Shown here one piece after another: positions 12,590 to 64,000 of a stretch of 64,000 nt of DNA; position 1 is the stretch's first letter, and each line of letters begins with the position of its first letter. The DNA lies in the NCBI RefSeq assembly GCF_988242995.1, contig NZ_OZ547043.1; one strand, given 5' to 3'. The position numbers and the translations under genes were made by a program. Under the pieces are notes generated by a model. The model had not been told where the DNA came from. It saw only the letters and a list, made by a program, of their open reading frames with translations, and made no database searches.

Positions 12590-13963
12590 ATGTTGCGTCG
12601 TTCTCTTATTTTTCTGGTGTTGTTGAGTGCGGGATGTGTCTCGCTCGATCCTCACTACAGTACGCCTGAATCCCCAATCCCGGCGACCTTGCCGGGAGCA
12701 CAGGGCCAGGGGAAGGCAATCAGCCATGACTGGCAGCAGGTGATCCACGATCCCCGATTGCAGCAGGTAGTAACCATTGCACTGAACAGTAACCGCGATG
12801 TGCAAAAAGCGATTGCTGATATTGACTCAGCACGGGCGCTCTATGGGCAAACTAATGCGTCGTTATTTCCGACGGTGAATGCGGCCTTAAGTTCGACTCG
12901 CAGTCGTTCGCTGGCGAATGGTACGGGAACAACTGCCGAGGCTGACGGCACGGTGTCCAGTTATACGTTAGATCTGTTTGGTCGTAATCAGAGTTTATCT
13001 CGGGCGGCGCGGGAAACCTGGCTTGCCAGTGAATTTACAGCCCAGAACACTCGTTTAACGCTGATTGCTGAAATCAGCACCGCCTGGCTGACACTGGCGG
13101 CTGATAACAGCAACCTGGCCCTGGCAAAAGAAACGATGGCCAGTGCAGAAAACTCATTGAAAATTATCCAGCGCCAGCAACAGGTTGGCACGGCGGCAGC
13201 GACAGATGTCAGTGAGGCGATGAGTGTTTATCAGCAAGCGCGCGCCAGCGTTGCCAGCTATCAGACACAAGTGATGCAGGATAAAAATGCGCTGAACTTA
13301 CTGGCAGGTACAACGCTTGCGGAAAATCTGCTACCGGGAACACTGGAAAGCCTGCCGGAACAAATGATAAGTCTGGTTCCTGCGGGAGTATCATCTGATG
13401 TTCTGCTGCGTCGCCCGGATATCCAGGAAGCGGAACATAATTTGAAGAGCGCCAATGCAGATATTGGCGCGGCGCGGGCTAACTTTTTCCCGACGATTTC
13501 GCTGACTGCCAGTGCCGGTGTTGGCAGTGACGCATTGTCGTCGTTGTTCAGCCACGGAATGCAGATCTGGTCATTTGCGCCATCGGTCACATTACCGCTG
13601 TTCACTGGCGGAAGTAATCTGGCGCAGCTTCGTTACGCAGAAGCACAAAAGCGTGGGCTCATTGCCACCTATGAAAAAACCGTTCAGACCGCATTTAAAG
13701 ATGTCGCTAACGGACTGGCGCGGCGGACCACGCTTGAAGAGCAACTGGATGCACAACGCCAGTATGTTAAAGCTGAGCAACAAACGGTCGATGTTGGCTT
13801 GCGTCGCTATCAGGCGGGTGTTGGTGATTACCTGACCGTGTTGACGGCGCAGCGCAGCTTGTGGATCGCACAGCAGGAGCTGCTGGCACTGCAACTGACT
13901 GATTTTACAAACCGAATCACGCTCTGGCAGTCGCTGGGCGGCGGCATGTCATCACTCAAGTAA
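12590..13963 (+). CDS. Outer-membrane efflux lipoprotein (NodT/OprM family), 457 aa
   Basis: Lipobox LLSAGC in signal peptide; starts 4 nt after the RND stop; TolC/OprM-like length and repeats. Confidence 0.85.
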   Translation: MLRRSLIFLVLLSAGCVSLDPHYSTPESPIPATLPGAQGQGKAISHDWQQVIHDPRLQQVVTIALNSNRDVQKAIADIDSARALYGQTNASLFPTVNAALSSTRSRSLANGTGTTAEADGTVSSYTLDLFGRNQSLSRAARETWLASEFTAQNTRLTLIAEISTAWLTLAADNSNLALAKETMASAENSLKIIQRQQQVGTAAATDVSEAMSVYQQARASVASYQTQVMQDKNALNLLAGTTLAENLLPGTLESLPEQMISLVPAGVSSDVLLRRPDIQEAEHNLKSANADIGAARANFFPTISLTASAGVGSDALSSLFSHGMQIWSFAPSVTLPLFTGGSNLAQLRYAEAQKRGLIATYEKTVQTAFKDVANGLARRTTLEEQLDAQRQYVKAEQQTVDVGLRRYQAGVGDYLTVLTAQRSLWIAQQELLALQLTDFTNRITLWQSLGGGMSSLK

Positions 13964-13971
13964 GGAATAAT

Positions 13972-15135
13972 ATGGCTAGAGTCTCTCTTTCATGGGCATT
14001 GATTCTTGGTCTTTTAGCCGGTATAGGCCCGATGTGTACCGATCTTTATTTGCCGGCTTTGCCGGAGATGTCTGAGCAACTGGCGGCAACCACGACCATA
14101 ACGCAATTAACCCTGACCGCATCACTGATCGGTCTTGGCGTCGGACAACTGTTATTTGGCCCTCTGAGCGACAAAATAGGGCGTAAACGTCCGTTAATCT
14201 TGTCGTTGCTATTGTTTATTGTTTCTTCCATTTTGTGCGCGACAACGAACAATATTTACTGGCTGGTGGTCTGGCGTTTTATTCAAGGGATCGCGGGGGC
14301 GGGTGGTTCGGTGCTCTCTCGTTCTATTGCTCGTGACAAATATCAGGGAGTAACGTTGACCCAGTTTTTTGCGCTGTTAATGACGGTGAATGGCCTGGCA
14401 CCGGTGTTGTCGCCAGTGCTGGGCGGGTACATTGTTAGCACTTTTGACTGGCGCACTTTATTCTGGGTAATGGCTGAAATTAGCACCGTATTGTTGCTGG
14501 GCTGCGTGTTATTTATTAATGAGACCTTGCCAGAAAATAAAAGGGGCTCATCATTGCTATTAACCGGACGAAGCGTGGTGCAGAACCGCCGTTTTATGCG
14601 CTTTTGCCTGATTCAAAGTTTTATGCTGGCAGGCTTGTTTGCATATATCGGCTCTTCGTCGTTCGTGTTGCAGAAGGAATTTGGCTTTAGTCCAATGCAA
14701 TTTAGCCTGGTGTTTGGCCTTAACGGCATCGGACTTATCATTGCTTCATGGATCTTTTCGCGCCTGGCTCGACGGATTAACGCGATGACATTGTTGCGAG
14801 GTGGCCTGATAGCGGCAATTTTGTGTGCATTGCTCACGGTCTTATGCGCATGGATACAATTGCCCATTCCGGCACTGGTGGCATTATTTTTCACCATCGC
14901 ATTTTGTAGCGGCATCGGCACTGTTGGCGGGGCAGAGGCTATGAGTGCAGTAGGGACGCAGGAATCTGGAACGGCGTCTGCGTTGATGGGGATGAGCATG
15001 TTTGTCTTCGGCGGTATAGCCGCGCCATTGTCGGGAATTGGCGGAGAAACACTGTTAAAAATGAGTCTGGCAATTACGGTGTGTTATACGCTGGCATTGC
15101 TGGTTGCTCTCACCAGAATCGACAATCAAAAGTAA
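13972..15135 (+). CDS. MFS (DHA1, Bcr/CflA-like) transporter, 387 aa
   Basis: 387-aa hydrophobic ORF with MFS motif GPLSDKIGRKRP; tightly coupled to the upstream OMP gene. Confidence 0.8.
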   Translation: MARVSLSWALILGLLAGIGPMCTDLYLPALPEMSEQLAATTTITQLTLTASLIGLGVGQLLFGPLSDKIGRKRPLILSLLLFIVSSILCATTNNIYWLVVWRFIQGIAGAGGSVLSRSIARDKYQGVTLTQFFALLMTVNGLAPVLSPVLGGYIVSTFDWRTLFWVMAEISTVLLLGCVLFINETLPENKRGSSLLLTGRSVVQNRRFMRFCLIQSFMLAGLFAYIGSSSFVLQKEFGFSPMQFSLVFGLNGIGLIIASWIFSRLARRINAMTLLRGGLIAAILCALLTVLCAWIQLPIPALVALFFTIAFCSGIGTVGGAEAMSAVGTQESGTASALMGMSMFVFGGIAAPLSGIGGETLLKMSLAITVCYTLALLVALTRIDNQK

Positions 15136-15139
15136 TGAA

Positions 15140-15177
15140 CACCTCATCCTGAGGGGGGCCCCTGTCAGGATGAGGTG
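15140..15177. terminator. Long perfect hairpin between the convergent MFS gene and sapF (probable bidirectional terminator)
   Basis: CACCTCATCCTGA...TCAGGATGAGGTG 13-bp perfect arms around a GC-rich centre; lies in the 49-bp gap between convergent stops. Confidence 0.5.
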
Positions 15178-15184
15178 CAAAGCA

Positions 15185-15991
15185 CTAACGGTCCTTACGC
15201 CACGCATCCGCCGTCAATGCCTCGCCAAAATGACCGGCGATCAGCCGTTTGGTGAGTTCATGCAGCGGCGATGCCAGCACATCGGCGGTGCTGCCTCGCT
15301 CGACAACCTCGCCCTGATGCATCACCAGCACCTGGTCGCTAATGTGCTTCATCATTCCGATATGCTGGGTAACATAAATATACGAAATGCCCTGTTTTTC
15401 CTGTAACTCAAGCATCAGATTAATCAACTGCGAACGCATCGACATATCCAGTGAGGCGAGGGCTTCATCGGCAATAATGACTTTTGGGCGCAATATCAGC
15501 GCGCGCGCCAGCCCCAGACGCTGTTTTTGCCCGGGTGCCAACATATGCGGATAGTAACTGACGTGATCCGGTAGCAGCCCAACCATACGCATCGTTTCAA
15601 TAATCTGTTTGCGACGCTGTTCCGGTTCCAGGTCGGTGTTCAGACGCAGTGGAAAATCCAGGATTTGCGAGATACGTTGACGGGGATTCAACGATGTCGA
15701 AGGATCCTGAAAAATCATGCGAATACGCTGACTACGGAAGGAATAATCGCCAAAATGCAGCGGATGATCGTCAATTAATAACTCGCCGCTGGTAGGTTCT
15801 ATCATTCCCGCCAGCATTTTTGCCAGCGTGGATTTACCCGAACCATTCTCGCCAATAATCGCCAGTGTCTGGCCTTCACGTAGCGTAAAGCTCAAGGGTT
15901 TTACCGCTTCTACGGTCTGACGACGAAACCAACCGGTCCGGTAGCGGAACGTTTTACTTAAATTACGCACTTCAAGCAGCGTTTCGATCAT
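15185..15991 (-). CDS. sapF: Peptide ABC transporter ATP-binding protein SapF, 268 aa
   Basis: Walker A GENGSGKST, ABC signature; fifth gene of the sapABCDF operon. Confidence 0.9.
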   Translation of the reverse strand: MIETLLEVRNLSKTFRYRTGWFRRQTVEAVKPLSFTLREGQTLAIIGENGSGKSTLAKMLAGMIEPTSGELLIDDHPLHFGDYSFRSQRIRMIFQDPSTSLNPRQRISQILDFPLRLNTDLEPEQRRKQIIETMRMVGLLPDHVSYYPHMLAPGQKQRLGLARALILRPKVIIADEALASLDMSMRSQLINLMLELQEKQGISYIYVTQHIGMMKHISDQVLVMHQGEVVERGSTADVLASPLHELTKRLIAGHFGEALTADAWRKDR

Positions 15992-15992
15992 C

Positions 15993-16985
15993 TCATTCTT
16001 TCTCCATGTTCAGCGGGAAATGACAGGCATAGAGATGATTTTTCGCCCCCGTCAAACGTGGCGTCACAATGCATTCTCGTTGTGCATACGGGCAACGCGG
16101 CCCCAGACGACACCCAATCGGTAACTGTTCCAGCAGTGGGATAGCGCCGGGCAGCGTATTGAGGCGACTTTTATGCGGCATCGCGCTGCCGAAGTCTGGT
16201 ATCGCGCGGATCAGCGCCTGGGTATAAGGATGATGTGGCATTGTCACCAACTCCTTACTTGGCGCGGTTTCCACCGTTTGACCGCAGTAAAGCACGTTAA
16301 TTTTATCCGCCCATTGGCTAAGCATTTGTAAGTCATGGCTGATAAGCAAAATAGTGGTATTGCTGTTTTGGTTGAGACGCGTCAGGAGGCGAAAGATTTG
16401 CGCCTGGGTTGTTGGCTCCATTGAGTTTGTCGGTTCGTCAGCAATCAGCAGACGCGGTTGATTCGCCAGTGCAATGGCTATCATCACTTTCTGACATTCA
16501 CCTTCGGTCAACTCATAGGGAAAACTGCGCATCGCATCTTTGTGATCTTTAATCCCCACGCGGTGCAGCAGTTCAATGGCACGGCGTTTGCGCCAGCCAA
16601 AACGCTGCCACCAACGGCCTTTATAGGTCCAGGCTGGGATGTTTTGCATCAACTGGCGACCCACACGTTCTGAAGGATCAAGACACGACTGCGGTTCCTG
16701 GAAAATCATCGACACGTTGTGACCTACCAGCTTGCGCCGTTCGCGTGCGGAGAGACGCAGCAAATCGATATCATCAAAACGCATACGGTCAGCAGTAACA
16801 CGCCAGTTATCTTTATTCACCCCACAAATCGCTTTCGCAATCAAACTTTTGCCGGAACCTGATTCGCCAACAAGACCGCGGATTTCACCTTCGGTTAAGG
16901 TCATACTTACGCGGTCGACGGCTTTAACCCACTCATCACCGGTTTTAAATTCAATGGTCAGGTTACGAATATCGAGTAATGGCAT
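15993..16985 (-). CDS. sapD: Peptide ABC transporter ATP-binding protein SapD, 330 aa
   Basis: Walker A GESGSGKS; operon context. Confidence 0.9.
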
Positions 16986-17875
16986 TATTCCACCCCCGCA
17001 ATAATTGCACGACGGACACCGTCGCCAAGGAGGTTAACCAACAGCACGCTAATCATAATTGCCGCACCTGGCAGCATGACAGTCCACGGGGCGACATAAA
17101 TCAGTTCCAGCGCATCACCGAGCATCGCTCCCCATTCAGGCGAGGGGAGTTGTGCGCCGAGATCGAGAAAGCCCAGCGCGGCGATATCGAGAATTGCCAT
17201 CGACAGTGCGCGGGTGATCTCGGTGACCAGCCCAGCGGTGATGTTTGGCATCACAGCAAACCAGAGAATATTCAGCGTTGATGCGCCATCCAGACGGGCG
17301 GCGATAACGTACTCTTTTTCCAGTTCGTCATGCACCATGCTGTAAATCGAACGTACCATACGAGGCAGCAGCGCCAGCCAGACGGCAAACATGGCGTGAG
17401 ACAAACTCGGTCCGGCAAACGCTACAACGATAATTGCCAGCAGCAGCGAAGGGATCGCCAGTAAGGTATCCAGAATATGGTTAAGCACCGCTGAGCGTAG
17501 GCCGTGGGTCGCCCCGGCGAAGGTGCCCAGTACCAGGCCACAGATCGTCGCGGCAAGCGTCACCACAAATGCGCCGCCTACGGTTGGCGCAGCTCCGCTC
17601 AGTAAACGGCTTAAAACATCGCGTCCGAGGTCGTCAGTCCCAAGGAAGAAAGAAACTTCGCCATAGCGCGACCATGACGGTGGCAATAATTGATAACCGA
17701 GAAATTGCTGATCGATGCCGTAAGGCGCAAACCAGCCGCCAAAAATACACAGTACAGCCAGCCCCGCGCAGCCGTACAGGCCGACCATCGCAGAGGCGTC
17801 ACTATAAAATTTGCGCCAGGCGGTACGCAGCGTGCCCGGCGGGCGCTTTTCGCTGTATACGCTATCGTAAGGCAT
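16985..17875 (-). CDS. sapC: Peptide ABC transporter permease SapC, 296 aa
   Basis: DppC/OppC-like permease; overlapping start/stop with neighbours. Confidence 0.9.
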
Positions 17876-25825: not shown

Positions 25826-25974
25826 TCTTTTTGTTCTGTAAGCCGGGTAAGCGCAATGCGCCCGGCAATCCATAAAGAATGTCGCCAGAAATAAACGGGC
25901 ATGCGGCCCGGGGATCTCTGCGCCCTGACGTTCACAAACTGCATATATCTGATAGACGTGAAACAGGAGTCATA

Positions 25975-30047: not shown

Positions 30048-30655
30048 TAGCCCAACGCAATAATGTCTGATGCGCTGCGCTTATCAGGCCTGCAAACGAC
30101 GTATTGATTATGTATGCCGGACAAAGCATTCTGAACTGCACCCCAAATGTTGGACATAATCTGACATCTGAAGGTGCAGTTTATGAAACATTCATTTGAA
30201 GTAAAACTTGCCGCTGTAAATCATTACCTGGCTGGTCATGCAGGCATCATTTCTACGGCAAAACTCTTTCAACTTTCTCACACCAGCCTCTCACACTGGA
30301 TTAATCTTTTTCTTCTTCACGGTCCTCGGGCACTGGATTGCAGACACAAGCGTAGCTATTCTCCTGAAGATAAACTTTGCGTGGTTCTTTATGCTCTCGG
30401 GCATTCTGAGTCTCTACCCCGGGTAGCTGCCCGGTTTAACATTCCCAGCCACAACACGGTTAAAAACTGGATAAAAGGCTACCGCAAATCTGGTAATGAG
30501 GCCTTTATCAGGCGCAGGAAGGAGAAAAGCATGACCCGTTCTGATGATACCCATGAAAACGAGGCAAACATGACGCCGGAAGAGATGAAGAATGAGCTGC
30601 GTTATCTTCGCGCAGAAAATGCATATCTGAAAGCCATGCAGGAGCATCTCCTGGA

Positions 30656-31563
<908 letters not shown>

Positions 31564-31602
31564 ATTCACGCCGCATCCGGCAAGTTGTATTGCCCAACTT
31601 CG

Positions 31603-34671: not shown

Positions 34672-34713
34672 CAAATTACTTATTGAGCGGTGTAAACAAC
34701 GCCGCTTATTCAT

Positions 34714-34739
34714 TTGATAAATCAAAATTAACCCACATT
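34714..34739 (+). promoter_or_regulatory. Candidate sigma-32 (heat-shock) promoter of ycjX
   Basis: TTGATAA ... CCCACATT resembles the sigma-32 consensus (TTGAAA / CCCCATnT) ~50 bp upstream of ycjX; spacing approximate. Confidence 0.35.
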
Positions 34740-34789
34740 ATTATCTCCAGTATCTAATCCTTTCTACAGCTTTCTGGCACAGGACAGCA

Positions 34790-41271: not shown

Positions 41272-41516
41272 GATCGTCTCTGGTTCAGGAAGTATTACAG
41301 GCAGTGTTGTGCAAATTTTGCGGATTATCAAATCCTTTTCTTCAACGCTATGTCATCGATCTTGTATCACCTTTTTGCCGGAAGTTGTTTGCATTTTCAT
41401 TGATGGTCAGATATTAGAATTGTCGTAATGTTATATACATGGCGTATTTTATTCTTACTGGTTCTACACATGTTAATCGCATCTGATTGATCAGTTCACC
41501 TTAATAAGTTTAATAA

Positions 41517-41543
41517 ATCGTACTGCACATAGTACAGTACGAT
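41517..41543 (-). terminator. Candidate terminator of the ymjC-like gene
   Basis: 9-bp perfect stem ATCGTACTG/CAGTACGAT with 9-nt loop, followed on the minus strand by UUAUUAAAC. Confidence 0.4.
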
Positions 41544-41561
41544 GGTAGCTATATAATTGAT

Positions 41562-42200
41562 TTACATGAAGAATGGCTTGTCGCCATCAGTCCCGGGTTG
41601 ATTGATTCCTATATTCTCACCAATGTGTTTCTCAGGTTTATCGATGATATCTGTAATTAATGCTGCGACACTCTTACGTGATACGATCGTACCTTTGAAT
41701 GGTTCATTGCGTGAGGTAAGCTCATAATCAATAATATCTTCATCGGTCAGCCAGGCAGGGCGAAGAATTGTATATTCCAGTCCAGAAGCCTCAATTGCAT
41801 CCGCAGCCCTGCGGAATGGTTTTAGGGGTTCACCAATAACTGCATTATTCCATTCGCCAAATTTTCCTGGAACTTCATCATAAATACCGAGGGAAAGAAC
41901 AAAGATCAGACGTTTAACATCACAGGCTTTCATCGCAGCGATCACTGAATTTGCCTGAATATCTAAATCTTCCCCCGTAAGGTTGGCATACACAACATCC
42001 TGTCCCTGCATGGCCTGCTTCAGTGCTGCATGATTCAGTACATCCCCCATAATAATCTTGCTATTAGTGGGATAGGGTTTGTGGATTTTTGCTGGCTGAC
42101 GGGCAAATAAAGTTTGTTTAATGGTTTGTTTATCTGCCAGTTGATTAATCACATGGCGGGCTATCTGACCGCCAGCACCAAGAATCAGTACATTTTTCAT
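41562..42200 (-). CDS. ymjC: NAD(P)-binding (NmrA/atypical SDR-like) oxidoreductase, 212 aa; intact counterpart of K-12 ymjC
   Basis: Rossmann motif LILGAGGQIA near the N-terminus; full-length ORF between mpaA and ycjY. Confidence 0.65.
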   Translation of the reverse strand: MKNVLILGAGGQIARHVINQLADKQTIKQTLFARQPAKIHKPYPTNSKIIMGDVLNHAALKQAMQGQDVVYANLTGEDLDIQANSVIAAMKACDVKRLIFVLSLGIYDEVPGKFGEWNNAVIGEPLKPFRRAADAIEASGLEYTILRPAWLTDEDIIDYELTSRNEPFKGTIVSRKSVAALITDIIDKPEKHIGENIGINQPGTDGDKPFFM

Positions 42201-47260: not shown

Positions 47261-47503
47261 TGTTTTATCAGGCTCCTCCAGATAATTGTCGTCATGCCGG
47301 AAACCCCTGGCGGGGCTATTTTACCGCGACAATTCATTCAGATCATCAATAGTCAGGGAAGGAAGTAGCAACATTAGCTAACTAATCAATGCGTTGATTG
47401 TAAATCCAGCTAAGAGGTAAGGTTTTCAGAGCAGACAACGGTAAAATGTCATGGTATTGTTACGTTTAGGTAACAAGAAATTTGTCTGCACAAGGATTAC
47501 ATC

Positions 47504-55788: not shown

Positions 55789-55795
55789 AACTGCA

Positions 55796-55890
55796 TAAAA
55801 AAATAGAGCCTGTCGACATCCGCCAGACTCTACAGTACACACAGCAGTGCATCCTCGTCTTAAATCCGGCCTGGTCTCCTCTGTGCCGGT
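55796..55890 (-). ncRNA. mcaS: McaS (IsrA) small regulatory RNA, ~95 nt
   Basis: Minus-strand sequence ACCGGCACAGAGGAGACCAGGCCGGAUUUAAGACGAGGAUGCACUGCUGUGUGUACUGUAGAGUCUGGCGGAUGUCGACAGGCUCUAUUUUUUUAU with GGA motifs and intrinsic terminator, in the abgR-smrA intergenic region. Confidence 0.8.
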
Positions 55891-57934: not shown

Positions 57935-58167
57935 TGAGATCCCGTTATTTTTATCAATTTTTGTTGCTATCCGATCGCAAAAAAGCCACGTCATATGATC
58001 AGATAATTCTGATAATGATAGACGCTATTTAACACTTCACACGGTTTGTATATGGAAAAGCATTTTGCTTTTTGTATTCAATTTAGACAGAATTTTATTA
58101 ATCATTTCAGGGTAATGGGGGGATGAGATGTTGCGTAACAGGGCCAGAAGGCTAGACTACAAAATAA

Positions 58168-59172
<1,005 letters not shown>

Positions 59173-59218
59173 CAAAAGCAATTTTTCCGGCTATCTGTAT
59201 ACAAAAACGCCGCAAAGT

Positions 59219-59232
59219 TTGAGCGAAGTCAA
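59219..59232 (+). promoter_or_regulatory. FNR box (TTGAGCGAAGTCAA) of the fnrS promoter
   Basis: FNR-type palindrome centred ~42 bp upstream of the FnrS 5' end (class II position). Confidence 0.7.
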
Positions 59233-59267
59233 TAAACTCTCTACCCATTCAGGGCAATATCTCTCTT

Positions 59268-59389
59268 GCAGGTGAATGCAACGTCAAGCGATGGGCGTTG
59301 CGCTCCATATTGTCTTACTTCCTTTTTTGAATTACTGCATAGCACAATTGATTCGTACGACGCCGACTTTGATGAGTCGGCTTTTTTTT
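59268..59389 (+). ncRNA. fnrS: FnrS small regulatory RNA, 122 nt
   Basis: GCAGGUGAAUGCAACGUCAAGCGAUGGGCGUUGCGCUCCAUAUUGUCUUACUUCCUUUUUUGAAUUACUGCAUAGCACAAUUGAUUCGUACGACGCCGACUUUGAUGAGUCGGCUUUUUUUU with terminator hairpin and U8 tract, between zntB and dbpA. Confidence 0.85.
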
Positions 59390-59446
59390 GCCTGTTATTT
59401 ATCAGCGTCTACCCTTTAAGAGTCCACCCAATGACCGGAGGGAAAT

Positions 59447-59620
59447 ATGACGACACTTATTTATTTGCAAATTCCTGTCCCTGAACCGATTCCTGGCGAT
59501 CCTGTTCCAGTGCCCGATCCGATCCCTCGCCCGCAACCCATGCCTGACCCACCACCCGATGAAGAACCGATTAAATTGTCGCATCGTGAGCGTAGATCTG
59601 CGAGGATACGCGCCTGCTAA
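59447..59620 (+). CDS. Candidate small proline-rich protein (57 aa), not in the ORF track because it is under 60 aa
   Basis: ATG with GGAGGG Shine-Dalgarno; translation MTTLIYLQIPVPEPIPGDPVPVPDPIPRPQPMPDPPPDEEPIKLSHRERRSARIRAC; stop lies 29 nt upstream of the dbpA GTG start. Confidence 0.4.
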   Translation: MTTLIYLQIPVPEPIPGDPVPVPDPIPRPQPMPDPPPDEEPIKLSHRERRSARIRAC

Positions 59621-59649
59621 CTTTGCGTCGATGACCACGAGAATAGATT

Positions 59650-61023
59650 GTGACCGCTTTTTCTACCCTGAATGTTTTGCCTCCCGCCCAACTCACGAAC
59701 CTTAATGAGTTGGGTTATTTAACCATGACGCCGGTGCAGGCCGCCGCGCTTCCGGCGATCCTTGCCGGAAAAGATGTTCGCGTGCAGGCGAAAACCGGCA
59801 GCGGCAAAACGGCGGCTTTTGGCCTCGGCTTGTTACAGCAAATTGATGCGTCGCTATTTCAAACCCAGGCTTTAGTGCTGTGTCCTACGCGTGAACTGGC
59901 GGATCAGGTGGCAGGTGAATTGCGTCGGCTGGCGCGTTTTCTGCCAAATACCAAAATTTTGACGTTGTGCGGTGGTCAACCGTTCGGTATGCAGCGTGAT
60001 TCGTTGCAACATGCGCCGCATATTATCGTGGCAACGCCGGGCCGTTTGTTGGATCATCTGCAAAAAGGCACGGTATCACTGGATGCGTTGAATACGCTGG
60101 TGATGGATGAGGCCGACCGCATGCTGGATATGGGATTTAGCGACGCCATTGATGATGTCATCCGTTTTGCGCCTGCATCTCGACAGACGCTTCTGTTTTC
60201 GGCAACCTGGCCGGAAGCCATCGCCGCAATCAGCGGACGAGTGCAACGCGATCCTTTGGCGATTGAAATTGACTCAACAGATGCTTTGCCACCCATTGAA
60301 CAACAATTTTATGAGACATCCAGTAAAGGCAAAATTCCTCTGTTGCAACGGTTATTAAGCTTGCATCAGCCATCCTCTTGTGTGGTGTTTTGCAATACCA
60401 AAAAAGATTGCCAGGCTGTCTGCGACGCGCTGAATGAAGTAGGGCAAAGTGCATTGTCGTTACACGGCGATCTGGAGCAACGTGATCGCGATCAGACCCT
60501 GGTACGTTTTGCTAACGGTAGCGCCCGTGTACTGGTTGCGACTGATGTTGCTGCGCGAGGTCTGGATATTAAATCGCTTGAGCTGGTGGTGAACTTTGAG
60601 CTGGCGTGGGATCCTGAAGTTCATGTGCATCGCATCGGTCGTACAGCGCGTGCAGGAAATAGCGGTCTGGCGATCAGTTTCTGTGCCCCGGAAGAAGCAC
60701 AGCGGGCCAATATCATTTCTGACATGTTGCAGATAAAACTTAACTGGCAAACGCCGCCAGTTAATAGTTCCATTGTGCCGCTGGAAGCCGAAATGGCAAC
60801 GTTATGTATCGATGGCGGGAAAAAAGCCAAAATGCGCCCGGGTGATGTATTAGGTGCGCTGACAGGAGATATCGGGCTTGATGGCGCAGATATTGGCAAA
60901 ATCGCCGTGCATCCGGCGCATGTCTATGTCGCGGTGCGTCAGGCTGTTGCTCATAAAGCATGGAAACAGTTACAGGGCGGGAAGATTAAAGGAAAAACGT
61001 GCCGGGTGCGGTTATTAAAATAA
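59650..61023 (+). CDS. dbpA: ATP-dependent RNA helicase DbpA (DEAD-box), 457 aa, GTG start
   Basis: DEAD-box motifs (AKTGSGKT, DEAD, SAT, HRIGRTAR) and C-terminal RNA-binding domain. Confidence 0.93.
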   Translation: MTAFSTLNVLPPAQLTNLNELGYLTMTPVQAAALPAILAGKDVRVQAKTGSGKTAAFGLGLLQQIDASLFQTQALVLCPTRELADQVAGELRRLARFLPNTKILTLCGGQPFGMQRDSLQHAPHIIVATPGRLLDHLQKGTVSLDALNTLVMDEADRMLDMGFSDAIDDVIRFAPASRQTLLFSATWPEAIAAISGRVQRDPLAIEIDSTDALPPIEQQFYETSSKGKIPLLQRLLSLHQPSSCVVFCNTKKDCQAVCDALNEVGQSALSLHGDLEQRDRDQTLVRFANGSARVLVATDVAARGLDIKSLELVVNFELAWDPEVHVHRIGRTARAGNSGLAISFCAPEEAQRANIISDMLQIKLNWQTPPVNSSIVPLEAEMATLCIDGGKKAKMRPGDVLGALTGDIGLDGADIGKIAVHPAHVYVAVRQAVAHKAWKQLQGGKIKGKTCRVRLLK

Positions 61024-61071
61024 TGAAATGTTGAATTGCAGGGTGCAAGAGTAAACATCTTCTTCGGGATT

Positions 61072-61145
61072 GCCGGATGCGACGCTGGCCGCGTCTTATC
61101 CGGCCTCCATAAGAGTAGCCCGATAAGCTTGCGCATCGGGCGCTA
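61072..61145. repeat. BIME/REP cluster between dbpA and ttcA
   Basis: TGCCGGATGCGACGCTGGCCGCGTCTTATCCGGCCTCC matches the REP consensus, followed by a second palindrome GCCCGAT...ATCGGGC. Confidence 0.6.
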
Positions 61146-61151
61146 TCCTGG

Positions 61152-62087
61152 TTATTTCACTTCAACCACATTCAGTCGTAACTCATCCAACTGATTTTCA
61201 TCTTCTTCAGGCTGCCAACCCGCCGGTTGTAGAGGGAGCTCTTCGCGATCAAACGCCAGATCACCCCCGTTAACAACTTCAGAACCGTGGGTAATGCCTT
61301 TGAAATCGAACAGGTTGGTATCGCACAGATGCGACGGCACCACATTCTGCATCGCGCTGAACATCGTCTCGATACGCCCCGGATAACGTTTATCCCAATC
61401 ACGCAACATGTCAGCAATCACCTGACGTTGCAGGTTAGGCTGTGAACCGCACAGGTTGCACGGAATAATCGGGAACGCTTTTGCATCGGCAAAGCGCTGA
61501 ATATCTTTCTCGCGGCAGTAGGCCAGCGGACGAATCACAATATGCTTGCCATCATCGCTCATCAGTTTCGGAGGCATACCTTTCATCTTGCCGCCGTAGA
61601 ACATATTTAAGAACAACGTTTGCAGGATATCGTCACGATGGTGACCCAGCGCGATCTTCGTCGCTCCCAGTTCCGTTGCGGTACGATAAAGGATACCGCG
61701 ACGAAGACGAGAACACAGTGAGCAAGTGGTTTTGCCCTCTGGAATTTTCTCTTTCACGATACCGTAAGTGTTCTCTTCCACAATCTTGTACTCAACGCCC
61801 AGCTTTTCAAGATACTCGGGCAGAACGTGTTCCGGGAAGCCCGGTTGCTTTTGATCGAGGTTAACAGCCACCAGCGAAAAATTGATTGGCGCGCTTTGCT
61901 GCAAATTGCGCAGAATCTCCAGCATGGTATAGCTGTCTTTACCCCCGGAGAGGCAAACCATGATGCGATCGCCTTCTTCAATCATATTGAAGTCAGCAAT
62001 GGCTTCGCCCACGTTACGACGCAGACGTTTTTGTAATTTGTTCAGGTTGTATTGTTCTTTCTTTGTAATTTGTTGATTTTCTTGCAT
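61152..62087 (-). CDS. ttcA: tRNA 2-thiocytidine biosynthesis protein TtcA, 311 aa
   Basis: PP-loop motif CLSGGKDS and paired CxxC motifs; start [30 protein letters not shown]. Confidence 0.92.
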
Positions 62088-62138
62088 TATTTCAGTTCTC
62101 TGGTACTAAATGGGGCAAATTGGGGGCAAACTTTGCAA

Positions 62139-63374
62139 CTACGATAACCGCGCATTCAACATGGCTATCTGTTCGTCGTTCATGTCATCAATCCACATAC
62201 CGTAAATTTCATACACCATCTGCGCAGTTTCATGCCCCATTTGGCTGGCTATAAATGCCGGGTTCGCTCCTGCCGTCAACAGCCAGCAGGCAAAAGTATG
62301 CCGCGTATGGTACGGATTACGGCGGCGAATACCAGCACGTTTTACTGCTGCATTCCACCTTGCCCCCAAACTGCTTACCGAGTAATAAGGTTTTTGTTTT
62401 CCGTTACACACCCTGGGCATGAAAACAAAATGCAGTTTTTGCTTTTCGGTTCTGCCGTACTCCCGATGATAAAAGGTGATTTCGCTTTTGCGATGATGCC
62501 CGGTCAGTTTGTATTGCTCCTTCAGTGCTTCAAGAGCAGGCTGCAGTAGTGTTACTGTTCGGATCCCGGCATTTGTTTTTGGGGGACCGAACATATCAAG
62601 TATCGTCAGGTTTCTTCTGACATTCACTATTCCCTTTTCGAGATCCACATCCTCCCACGCCAGAGCTGCCAGTTCCCCGTGACGAAGTCCTGAGTAAACG
62701 GCAAATTTCCACAAGTTCTGGCTCTGTCCTTTTTCACTTTCCATTAATGCATTGAATTCTGTTTTAGATAACGGATCAGGCTTTATTCTGTTTCGCTGTA
62801 ATTTTTTTACTCCTTCAAATGGTTTGGTTGATATAAATCCCGACTGATACGCAAAACGCAACAGCGAACAGAGCAGGGCGATATAGTTATCAACTGTGCG
62901 CACGGTTCTTCCTTTTTTGTTGGATCTTGGATTATCCAGGTAAAGCGTTTCTCCATGCAGCAGTTCATTCCGGTAGTTTAAGATATCGCTATAACGAATA
63001 TGTGATATCGGGGTACTTTCACAAATTATTATTCTGAGTGTTTTTAATTGTGATTTCGTTTTCTTCATTGTGTTTGTTGTTAACTCTGTCTCTTTAATTT
63101 TTGTCCAGATATCACAAAGCTCTCCGAACGTTTTTATGACTCTCGTTGTCACCATTTTTGCCCCAGTGCTGGACTGGGGAAAACGTCTTAAATACTCAAA
63201 TTCACCGGAGTTTATTTCATGAACTATCAGCGCTCTTAAATTTCCGGCCTTTTTAATATTACTGTTTGTAATCTCCCAGCCTTTTAATGTTTCCCGACAT
63301 CGTTTTCCTCGAAACATGAACCAGATGCGAATGTATCTACCTCTAATCTCGACACCTGTTGGTAATTTAGACAT
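62139..63374 (-). CDS. intR: Rac-like prophage integrase (tyrosine recombinase), 411 aa
   Basis: Tyrosine recombinase C-terminal region (HTRHTFACWLLTAGANPAFIASQMGHETAQMVYEIYGMW); AT-rich; immediately next to the ttcA 5' end. Confidence 0.88.
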   Translation of the reverse strand: MSKLPTGVEIRGRYIRIWFMFRGKRCRETLKGWEITNSNIKKAGNLRALIVHEINSGEFEYLRRFPQSSTGAKMVTTRVIKTFGELCDIWTKIKETELTTNTMKKTKSQLKTLRIIICESTPISHIRYSDILNYRNELLHGETLYLDNPRSNKKGRTVRTVDNYIALLCSLLRFAYQSGFISTKPFEGVKKLQRNRIKPDPLSKTEFNALMESEKGQSQNLWKFAVYSGLRHGELAALAWEDVDLEKGIVNVRRNLTILDMFGPPKTNAGIRTVTLLQPALEALKEQYKLTGHHRKSEITFYHREYGRTEKQKLHFVFMPRVCNGKQKPYYSVSSLGARWNAAVKRAGIRRRNPYHTRHTFACWLLTAGANPAFIASQMGHETAQMVYEIYGMWIDDMNDEQIAMLNARLS

Positions 63375-63375
63375 A

Positions 63376-63591
63376 TCATGAGTCTTTGATAAACTGATTT
63401 ATCTTTGGATAGTTGTACCAGATAATCCCTCGTTTGCTGTCTGGCTTACCTAAAGGAGATACTCGTTTGAAGTGGAAGCCCTCCACCCAACAGTTCTGGC
63501 GGTATGCTTCAATTTGTCTGGCCCCCAGACCAGTGCGAAGCATCAGGCCGTATTCAACCATCCACTCTTCATTAAAGATTACTTGTGCCAT
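63376..63591 (-). CDS. xisR: Prophage excisionase XisR (YdaQ), ~71 aa
   Basis: Small [38 protein letters not shown]... directly upstream of the integrase. Confidence 0.75.
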
Positions 63592-63669
63592 CGCATCACC
63601 TCTGGCAGGCGCCAATGTTAGACTGAAATTGACGCCCGATGTTGATTATTAATAATCAGCTATGAAGTT

Positions 63670-63891
63670 TTAATTTGAATACAATGCAATTCTCGAGGAC
63701 TGAAGTTTCTCGCAATTAAAATTTATCAGTTTTACTTTCTGCTCTCTGGAAACGCCTGCTTCTTTTTTACCTGAGAGCATTTTTTCGCATTCTGATTTCG
63801 TTAGTTTAGATTTTGAATATCTTGTCCAGTTAGTAGGAGTGCCACCTTCCTTTTCAATAGTGGCGGTAATTTTATACATGAACACCTCCAT
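63670..63891 (-). CDS. ydaC: Rac-like prophage small protein YdaC (DUF1187); start approximate
   Basis: MEVFMYKITATIEKEGGTPTNWTRYSKSKLTKSECEKMLSGKKEAGVSREQKVKLINFNCEKLQ...; the ORF track has an N-terminal extension. Confidence 0.65.
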   Translation of the reverse strand: MEVFMYKITATIEKEGGTPTNWTRYSKSKLTKSECEKMLSGKKEAGVSREQKVKLINFNCEKLQSSRIALYSN

Positions 63892-64000
63892 TATTATTTC
63901 CAGTGGTTCGTTTATTCCATCTTTCGAGTGCTTCTTTTTCACTTCCACCATAACCGGTTCGGGATTCGCATCCGTTACACTTCGCTCGGTAATATCCTGA

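Follow-up and report, generated by a model that had tools for sequence, protein, structure and literature searches.

At the right-hand end of the 64,000-nucleotide stretch of DNA analysed here (hereafter the window), a tyrosine integrase gene lies next to ttcA, the gene of the tRNA 2-thiocytidine(32) synthetase, and the question raised by this locus is whether a prophage junction runs between the two and, if so, what the integration did to ttcA. An earlier note, made from the letters alone, had proposed the left end of a Rac-like prophage. We are almost certain that this segment represents attL, where the left end of a Rac-family lambdoid prophage joins ttcA after site-specific integration into the 5' end of that gene. 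The attL of Rac in ttcA, XisR and the four-residue change of TtcA are already known from a publication of 2015, and RefSeq annotates the locus; a minor addition made below concerns candidate arm-type sites and the way in which they overlap the leader of ttcA.

The genes on both sides of the supposed junction were identified by domain searches and by comparison with annotated genomes. ttcA (61152–62087, minus strand) encodes 311 aa with a PP-loop ATPase domain and is named after the matching genes in RefSeq, and its ATG occupies 62085–62087 on the same strand. It is separated by exactly 51 bp (62088–62138) from intR (62139–63374, minus strand), which encodes the Rac tyrosine integrase of 411 aa, with Arm-DNA-bind_2 at the N-terminus (E = 3.9e-26) followed by Phage_integrase (E = 6.6e-23), and whose matching gene carries the RefSeq name intR among the matching genomes listed. 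The distance given in the earlier note was thus right, but the integrase does not begin there, since it is the stop codon (62139–62141) that adjoins the spacer; the 3' end of intR faces ttcA and the gene is read towards it. The excisionase and the ydaC-like gene announced to follow are both present, as a DUF1233 and a DUF1187 gene, respectively. The former is xisR (ydaQ; 63376–63591, minus strand), the Rac excisionase of 71 aa (Pfam DUF1233 putative excisionase, E = 8.9e-21), identical to K-12 xisR; its coordinates follow the K-12 annotation, the mechanically called ORF reaching a TTG at 63615, and a single base separates its stop codon from the start codon of intR downstream. The latter is rcbA (ydaC; 63670–63879, minus strand), annotated in K-12 as a double-strand-break reduction protein (Pfam DUF1187, E = 2.7e-38). 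Antisense over rcbA runs ralA (63695–63873, plus strand), whose sRNA is the antitoxin in the type I toxin-antitoxin pair RalR/RalA and matches Rfam RF02694 over its full length at 225 bits (gathering score 170). Of ralR, the endodeoxyribonuclease toxin gene, the window includes only the 3' part before it ends (63872–64000, minus strand; RefSeq annotation, placed by coordinate transfer from K-12 ralR, 1413733–1413927, at 100% identity). ttcA, intR, xisR, rcbA and ralR are therefore all carried by the minus strand, and the early-left order xisR, rcbA, ralA and ralR 3' part is identical to that of K-12 up to position 64000, where the window stops before the positions of recT and recE. In total, 1.9 kb of the prophage lies inside the window. 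The drop in GC content noted earlier is real (0.507 for 1–62037 vs 0.421 for 62064–64000), but it is moderate and gradual rather than marked: the 3' half of intR still has about 0.48, and 0.35–0.40 is reached only beyond about 62750.

The attachment core had been expected within the first ~60 bp of ttcA, and it was located there as the 26-bp sequence TTGTTCAGGTTGTATTGTTCTTTCTT at 62038–62063 (strand not applicable), the common core of attL, which corresponds to nucleotides 25–50 of ttcA and is a direct repeat at both Rac ends. It is the longest sequence common to the two ends of K-12 Rac, with copies at 1411899–1411924 (attL) and 1434959–1434984 (attR) of NC_000913, 23 kb apart. The feature 'cryptic prophage Rac' of NC_000913 starts at 1411899, corresponding to window position 62038, and the K-12 annotation gives Rac as 1411899–1434958 with the ttcC pseudogene at attR. 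In strain NA3664, the same 26-mer is found at both ends of a Rac-like prophage, about 52 kb apart. Within the 64-kb window the core is single-copy (0 matches expected by chance), and no second copy was found there even when up to three mismatches were allowed. The other prophage end lies outside the window.

The core divides ttcA into parts of different origin. Nucleotides 51–936 belong to the host, nucleotides 25–50 are the att core, and nucleotides 1–24 (62064–62087, minus strand) are a phage-borne surrogate 5' end that supplies codons 1–8, so that ttcA in the window is a hybrid gene. Its ribosome-binding region and all DNA farther upstream likewise come from the phage. When the surrogate 24 bp were compared with the native 24 bp, as preserved in the ttcC pseudogene at K-12 attR, 17 of the 24 bases matched and seven did not; beyond those 24 bp, and likewise left of the core, K-12 attL and attR are unrelated. 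A natural empty site is available in strain VCSW7, in which ttcA directly adjoins uspF. Over the 5' 540 bp of ttcA, eight positions distinguish it from the window, every one of them in 62064–62084 and none in 61546–62063. Divergence thus starts directly outside the core, which is where the boundary should fall after site-specific exchange inside the 26 bp, and strand exchange must fall inside the core.

In order to identify the element, the window was aligned with complete genomes. Its tail, from zntB to ralR, aligns gap-free to E. coli K-12 MG1655, and 61780–64000 (2,221 bp) is 100% identical to K-12, all 61 mismatches being confined to 58139–61779 (1.7% divergence). The earlier reading of a Rac arrangement at ttcA is borne out by intR, xisR, rcbA, RalA and the start of ralR, each 100% identical to the Rac of K-12 MG1655 and each also annotated by RefSeq in the best-matching genomes, and that the integrase is Rac-type, the point which had been left to an alignment, follows from the absence of any mismatch with K-12 Rac across 61780–64000, including 0 mismatches over the 1236 bp of intR in NC_000913. 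K-12 Rac (intR b1345, xisR b1346) is hence nucleotide-identical to the window from 258 bp inside ttcA through ralA into ralR, and the two agree in the core, in its position and in the hybrid N-terminus of TtcA; K-12 differs in its flank, which is 1.7% diverged, and in several insertions and deletions relative to the window. The host chromosome is not K-12, the best identity among 5,426 complete E. coli genomes being 99.2–99.4%, and a chromosome background that is 1–2% diverged accordingly harbours a Rac left end without any mismatch to K-12. The best match to the junction itself was NA3664, in which the left end of the prophage shows no difference from the window across 62088–64000; this ~52-kb prophage ends beside uspF, carries sitABCD and differs from K-12 in its late region. 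With a threshold of at least 80% coverage, the ttcA-intR junction was found in 1,836 of the 5,426 genomes and the uninterrupted ttcA-uspF site in 2,486, while 1,104 showed neither a ttcA-intR match nor an empty-site match of at least 80%; therefore, intermediate states probably exist. Hitch-hiking of host flank with the prophage was considered for the 258 bp of K-12 identity at 61780–62037, and is unsupported because VCSW7 is also identical over 61546–62063, marking this part of ttcA as well conserved. The genome KY178 differs from the window at four positions in that part of ttcA.

The earlier note had further claimed that the 5' end of ttcA is supplied by the prophage and that excision would change the N-terminus of TtcA. 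As in K-12 lysogens, and in agreement with Fig. 5 of PMC4632033, TtcA in the window begins with MQENQQIT. We rebuilt attB by joining the ttcA body and core of the window to the K-12 attR flank, which gave a TtcA of the same length beginning with MSQNQEIS, i.e. with the four substitutions Q2S, E3Q, Q6E and T8S; the natural empty-site protein of VCSW7 begins with MSQNQEFS. Such a change has been shown experimentally in K-12, where Rac is located between ttcA and ttcC': its excision changes four N-terminal residues of TtcA, the imperfect match of attL and attR being given as the cause, and the two forms of TtcA confer different fitness under carbenicillin (Liu et al. 2015, PMC4632033). The same study reported that strains without a Rac-like prophage carry the post-excision form and that YdaQ (XisR) is the Rac excisionase, which binds attR (PMC4632033). 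In a 2023 NAR paper, precise Rac deletions of 23,060 bp were recovered and only Q6E and T8S were listed (PMC11014345). This list is shorter than that of Liu et al. and than the present reconstruction, and the discrepancy may stem from the placement of the deletion inside the partially homologous stretch.

We then turned to the recombinase and its DNA sites. Alignment of the IntR catalytic domain to Tn1549 Int (6emy) placed R231, R358, H381 and Y391 at conserved catalytic positions, with the first His of the HxxR motif shifted (Y355-H356-T357-R358). On the prophage side of the core, the P' arm is laid out as in lambda and reads in the order core (62038–62063), IHF consensus, ttcA ATG, two GGGGCAAA repeats and intR stop codon. 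The IHF-binding consensus TAAnnnnTTGATW directly adjoins the core as TAATTTGTTGATT (62066–62078, plus strand) and is one of only three matches on both strands of the 64-kb window. An in-vivo IHF footprint on TAAnnnnTTGATW has been reported near the K-12 ttcA start, beside Rac attL (Kasho et al. 2021, PMC8407004), and the K-12 sequence under that footprint is identical to that of the window. The two direct GGGGCAAA repeats (62112–62119 and 62123–62130, plus strand) lie in an 11-bp register in the ttcA-intR spacer and are candidate arm-type (P') sites of IntR. Exact GGGGCAAA occurs six times in 30 kb of K-12, and all but one of these copies fall within the two att arms, in one orientation throughout: two in the attL P' arm and three, accompanied by one copy with a single mismatch, in the attR P arm at 106–154 bp from the core. 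NA3664 also has the three exact copies at attR. Because IntR has an N-terminal arm-binding domain, the GGGGCAAA repeats are probably integrase arm-type sites. No account of these repeats or of Rac arm-type sites was found in the literature searched, which leaves an earlier description possible. On these sequence features, namely the catalytic residues, the arm-binding domain, the putative arm repeats, the adjacent xis and the IHF consensus, IntR would be classed as a lambda-type arm-binding tyrosine integrase.

This arm overlaps the start and the 5' leader of ttcA, with the IHF site at codons 4–8 and the GGGGCAAA pair 25–43 bp upstream of the ATG, raising the question of how ttcA is transcribed in a lysogen. 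No candidate for a sigma-70 consensus promoter was obtained on the minus strand of the 51-bp spacer and the intR 3' end, and the number of sigma-70 hits in the region equalled the expectation from shuffled sequence. Since no consensus promoter was seen between intR and ttcA, lysogen ttcA may be transcribed from inside or through intR. A stronger version, in which lysogen ttcA expression and hence s2C32 thiolation of tRNA would depend on intR/xisR read-through and be modulated by IntR and IHF at attL, is speculative and in our estimate unlikely; if true, a host enzyme of tRNA modification would be linked to the state of prophage regulation, beyond the known four-residue change.

These features can be assembled into the following scheme. 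The attP of the phage would bear a 26-bp core identical to ttcA nucleotides 25–50, followed by an imperfect copy (17/24 bases) of the first eight codons with the start codon, and beyond this surrogate start by the P' arm, with its IHF site and its pair of GGGGCAAA repeats, and by the int-xis module. Exchange in the core, catalysed by IntR, would fuse the body of ttcA to the phage-supplied start and upstream region, so that the lysogen would make a full-length TtcA beginning with MQENQQIT, and would displace the native start and promoter to the far prophage end, where they would lie as the ttcC pseudogene lies beside uspF in K-12. Excision would require IntR and XisR, probably with IHF, and would rejoin the native 5' end to give the TtcA beginning with MSQNQEIS. 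In this reading the far end is expected to show a second TTGTTCAGGTTGTATTGTTCTTTCTT, then ACTAATTTCTTGATTTTGCGACAT and uspF, and we infer that an intact attR is still present in this strain. As to the element itself, a cryptic remnant of 23 kb like that of K-12, an apparently complete phage of ~52 kb like that of NA3664 and a shorter relic are all conceivable. Seven matches in a phage collection were also considered as records of a free-phage attP, but those inspected are prophage extractions with host genes (ON470595, the best record inspected, includes the host genes dbpA and ttcA, and the annotation of KU052037 opens with ttcA); no free-phage genome with an intact attP was found among the matching records inspected.

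Other explanations of the segment were weighed against the same data. That there is no junction at all, the integrase being a resident chromosomal gene beside an ordinary ttcA, could draw only on the fact that a single junction is visible, and we give it practically no chance: 2,486 genomes have ttcA directly beside uspF with nothing between them, the boundary between host and phage coincides exactly with the end of the 26-bp repeat, and GC content falls across it. The core at both ends of the prophage in K-12 and NA3664, together with the ttcA-uspF genomes and the VCSW7 boundary, refutes this reading. The int-xis-attP module of Rac might instead have been borrowed by some other mobile element, for instance a satellite or a hybrid lambdoid phage, in which case the DNA beyond 64000 would not be Rac-like. 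Lambdoid phages are mosaic, the KY178 module is ~1% diverged (20 of 1,913 bases) with its DUF1187 gene annotated differently, and NA3664 combines this left end with a late region unlike that of K-12 and with sitABCD; yet identity to Rac does not stop at int-xis but carries on through rcbA and ralA into ralR, where the window ends, and recT, recE, racC and kilR follow in every genome inspected, making a borrowed module very improbable.

Compared with these, the survival of a stranded remnant deserves somewhat more weight, although we still consider it unlikely. Here only the int-xis-ral left end would have been retained, the rest, including attR, having been deleted or rearranged, and excision would no longer be possible. 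K-12 Rac is itself a decayed 23-kb cryptic prophage with IS5 and pseudogenes, only 1.9 kb of the present element is seen in the window, and 1,104 of 5,426 genomes match neither junction nor empty site at the 80% level, so that intermediate states probably exist. On the other hand, the left-end genes are all intact with DNA identical to that of the excision-proficient K-12 element, and both complete genomes inspected that have the identical left end (K-12 and NA3664) keep both att cores. Because of this intact and identical left end, a remnant without attR is not the favoured reading.

Besides K-12 Rac, the known systems closest to the attL described here are full-length Rac-like prophages at ttcA. 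Sp10 (O157 Sakai), CP-933R (EDL933), Rac-SA53 and the NA3664 prophage have their integration site, core and left arm (int-xis-rcbA-ralR-recT-recE) in common, while their late regions and cargo vary; Sp10 and CP-933R have been reported at the same ttcA site (PMC4632033). Among better-known systems, lambda has its H' site in a position like that of the IHF site beside the core. Target ORFs are also kept intact by a phage-borne surrogate gene end in e14 and phage 21, both at icd, and in Gifsy-1 at lepA, whose modules share with the present one an arm-binding tyrosine integrase, an adjacent excisionase and an IHF site beside the core; the parallel with e14/icd and Gifsy-1/lepA has been drawn before (PMC4632033 and PMC6379469). 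The locus is a clean textbook case of this arrangement, in which a phage-carried surrogate 5' gene end keeps the target gene functional. Unlike in the icd and lepA cases, however, Rac replaces the 5' end of its target, so that the phage must supply the translation start and the transcription signals, and the replacement changes four amino acids, for which a phenotype has been reported.

The left end of the Rac prophage at ttcA, covering 1,913 bp at 62088–64000, was identical (100%) by sequence comparison to the corresponding regions of both E. coli K-12 MG1655 (K-12, NC_000913) and NA3664, an E. coli strain with a Rac-like prophage of ~52 kb at ttcA, whereas the chromosome adjoining the prophage (58139–61779) diverged from K-12 by 1.7%. 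At this backbone rate ~32 differences would be expected over the prophage left end, indicating that the Rac module here and that of K-12 have a much more recent common ancestry than the two host backbones do. Judged from these sequences, a recent horizontal spread of the module fits better than one ancient acquisition. Regarding the strain background, the chromosomal part of the window reached a top identity of only 99.2–99.4% among 5,426 complete RefSeq E. coli genomes, none being better, so that its strain or lineage has no representative in this set.

The chromosomal part also differed from K-12 by several insertions and deletions. A 1.4-kb insertion was found between puuE and pspF (30131–31564), containing two ORFs (30174–30704 and 30809–31531) that, from their layout and size, looked like a putative orfA/orfB pair of the IS3 family. 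The ycjM–ompG sugar-utilisation cluster (~14 kb in K-12, NC_000913 ~1370020–1384100) was missing at 34690–34777, where ycjW followed pspE almost directly. The stretch of ~660 bp at 41401–42062 was without an equivalent in K-12, where the short ymjC/ymjD ORFs occupy this position; at the corresponding place, E. coli KY178, a strain bearing a Rac module with ~1% divergence, has an intact gene for an SDR-family oxidoreductase. Also missing were the IS5F copy located between ynaI and ynaJ in K-12 (at ~47378–47381) and a 122-bp K-12 stretch between puuR and puuC (at 25872). Two sRNAs, FnrS (59268–59385, + strand, 134.8 bits) and McaS (55795–55890, − strand, 111.6 bits), were matched by Rfam at the positions expected from K-12.

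Among the 5,426 genomes, 1,104 gave neither a ttcA–intR match (Rac junction) nor a ttcA–uspF match (empty site) at ≥80%. Divergent modules or unrelated elements may sit at ttcA in these genomes, or the junction may be interrupted by an IS, as it is by IS1 in strain 2273-PO3. Host genes were present in two of the GenBank 'phage' records matching Rac; vB_EcoS-683R6 (ON470595.1) includes host dbpA and ttcA (segment examined, 12729–17691), and Rac-SA53 (KU052037.1) includes host ttcA. Judged from these host genes, both are prophage regions extracted from bacterial assemblies, not packaged phage genomes.

Published descriptions of ttcA after Rac excision disagree: Liu et al. 2015 (PMC4632033) reported that seven bases and four amino acids change, whereas a 2023 NAR paper (PMC11014345) gave 'three base changes' with Q6E/T8S. 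This discrepancy may stem from the position assigned to the deletion within the partial homology. Our reconstruction agreed with PMC4632033 on both counts, with seven bases and four amino acids altered.
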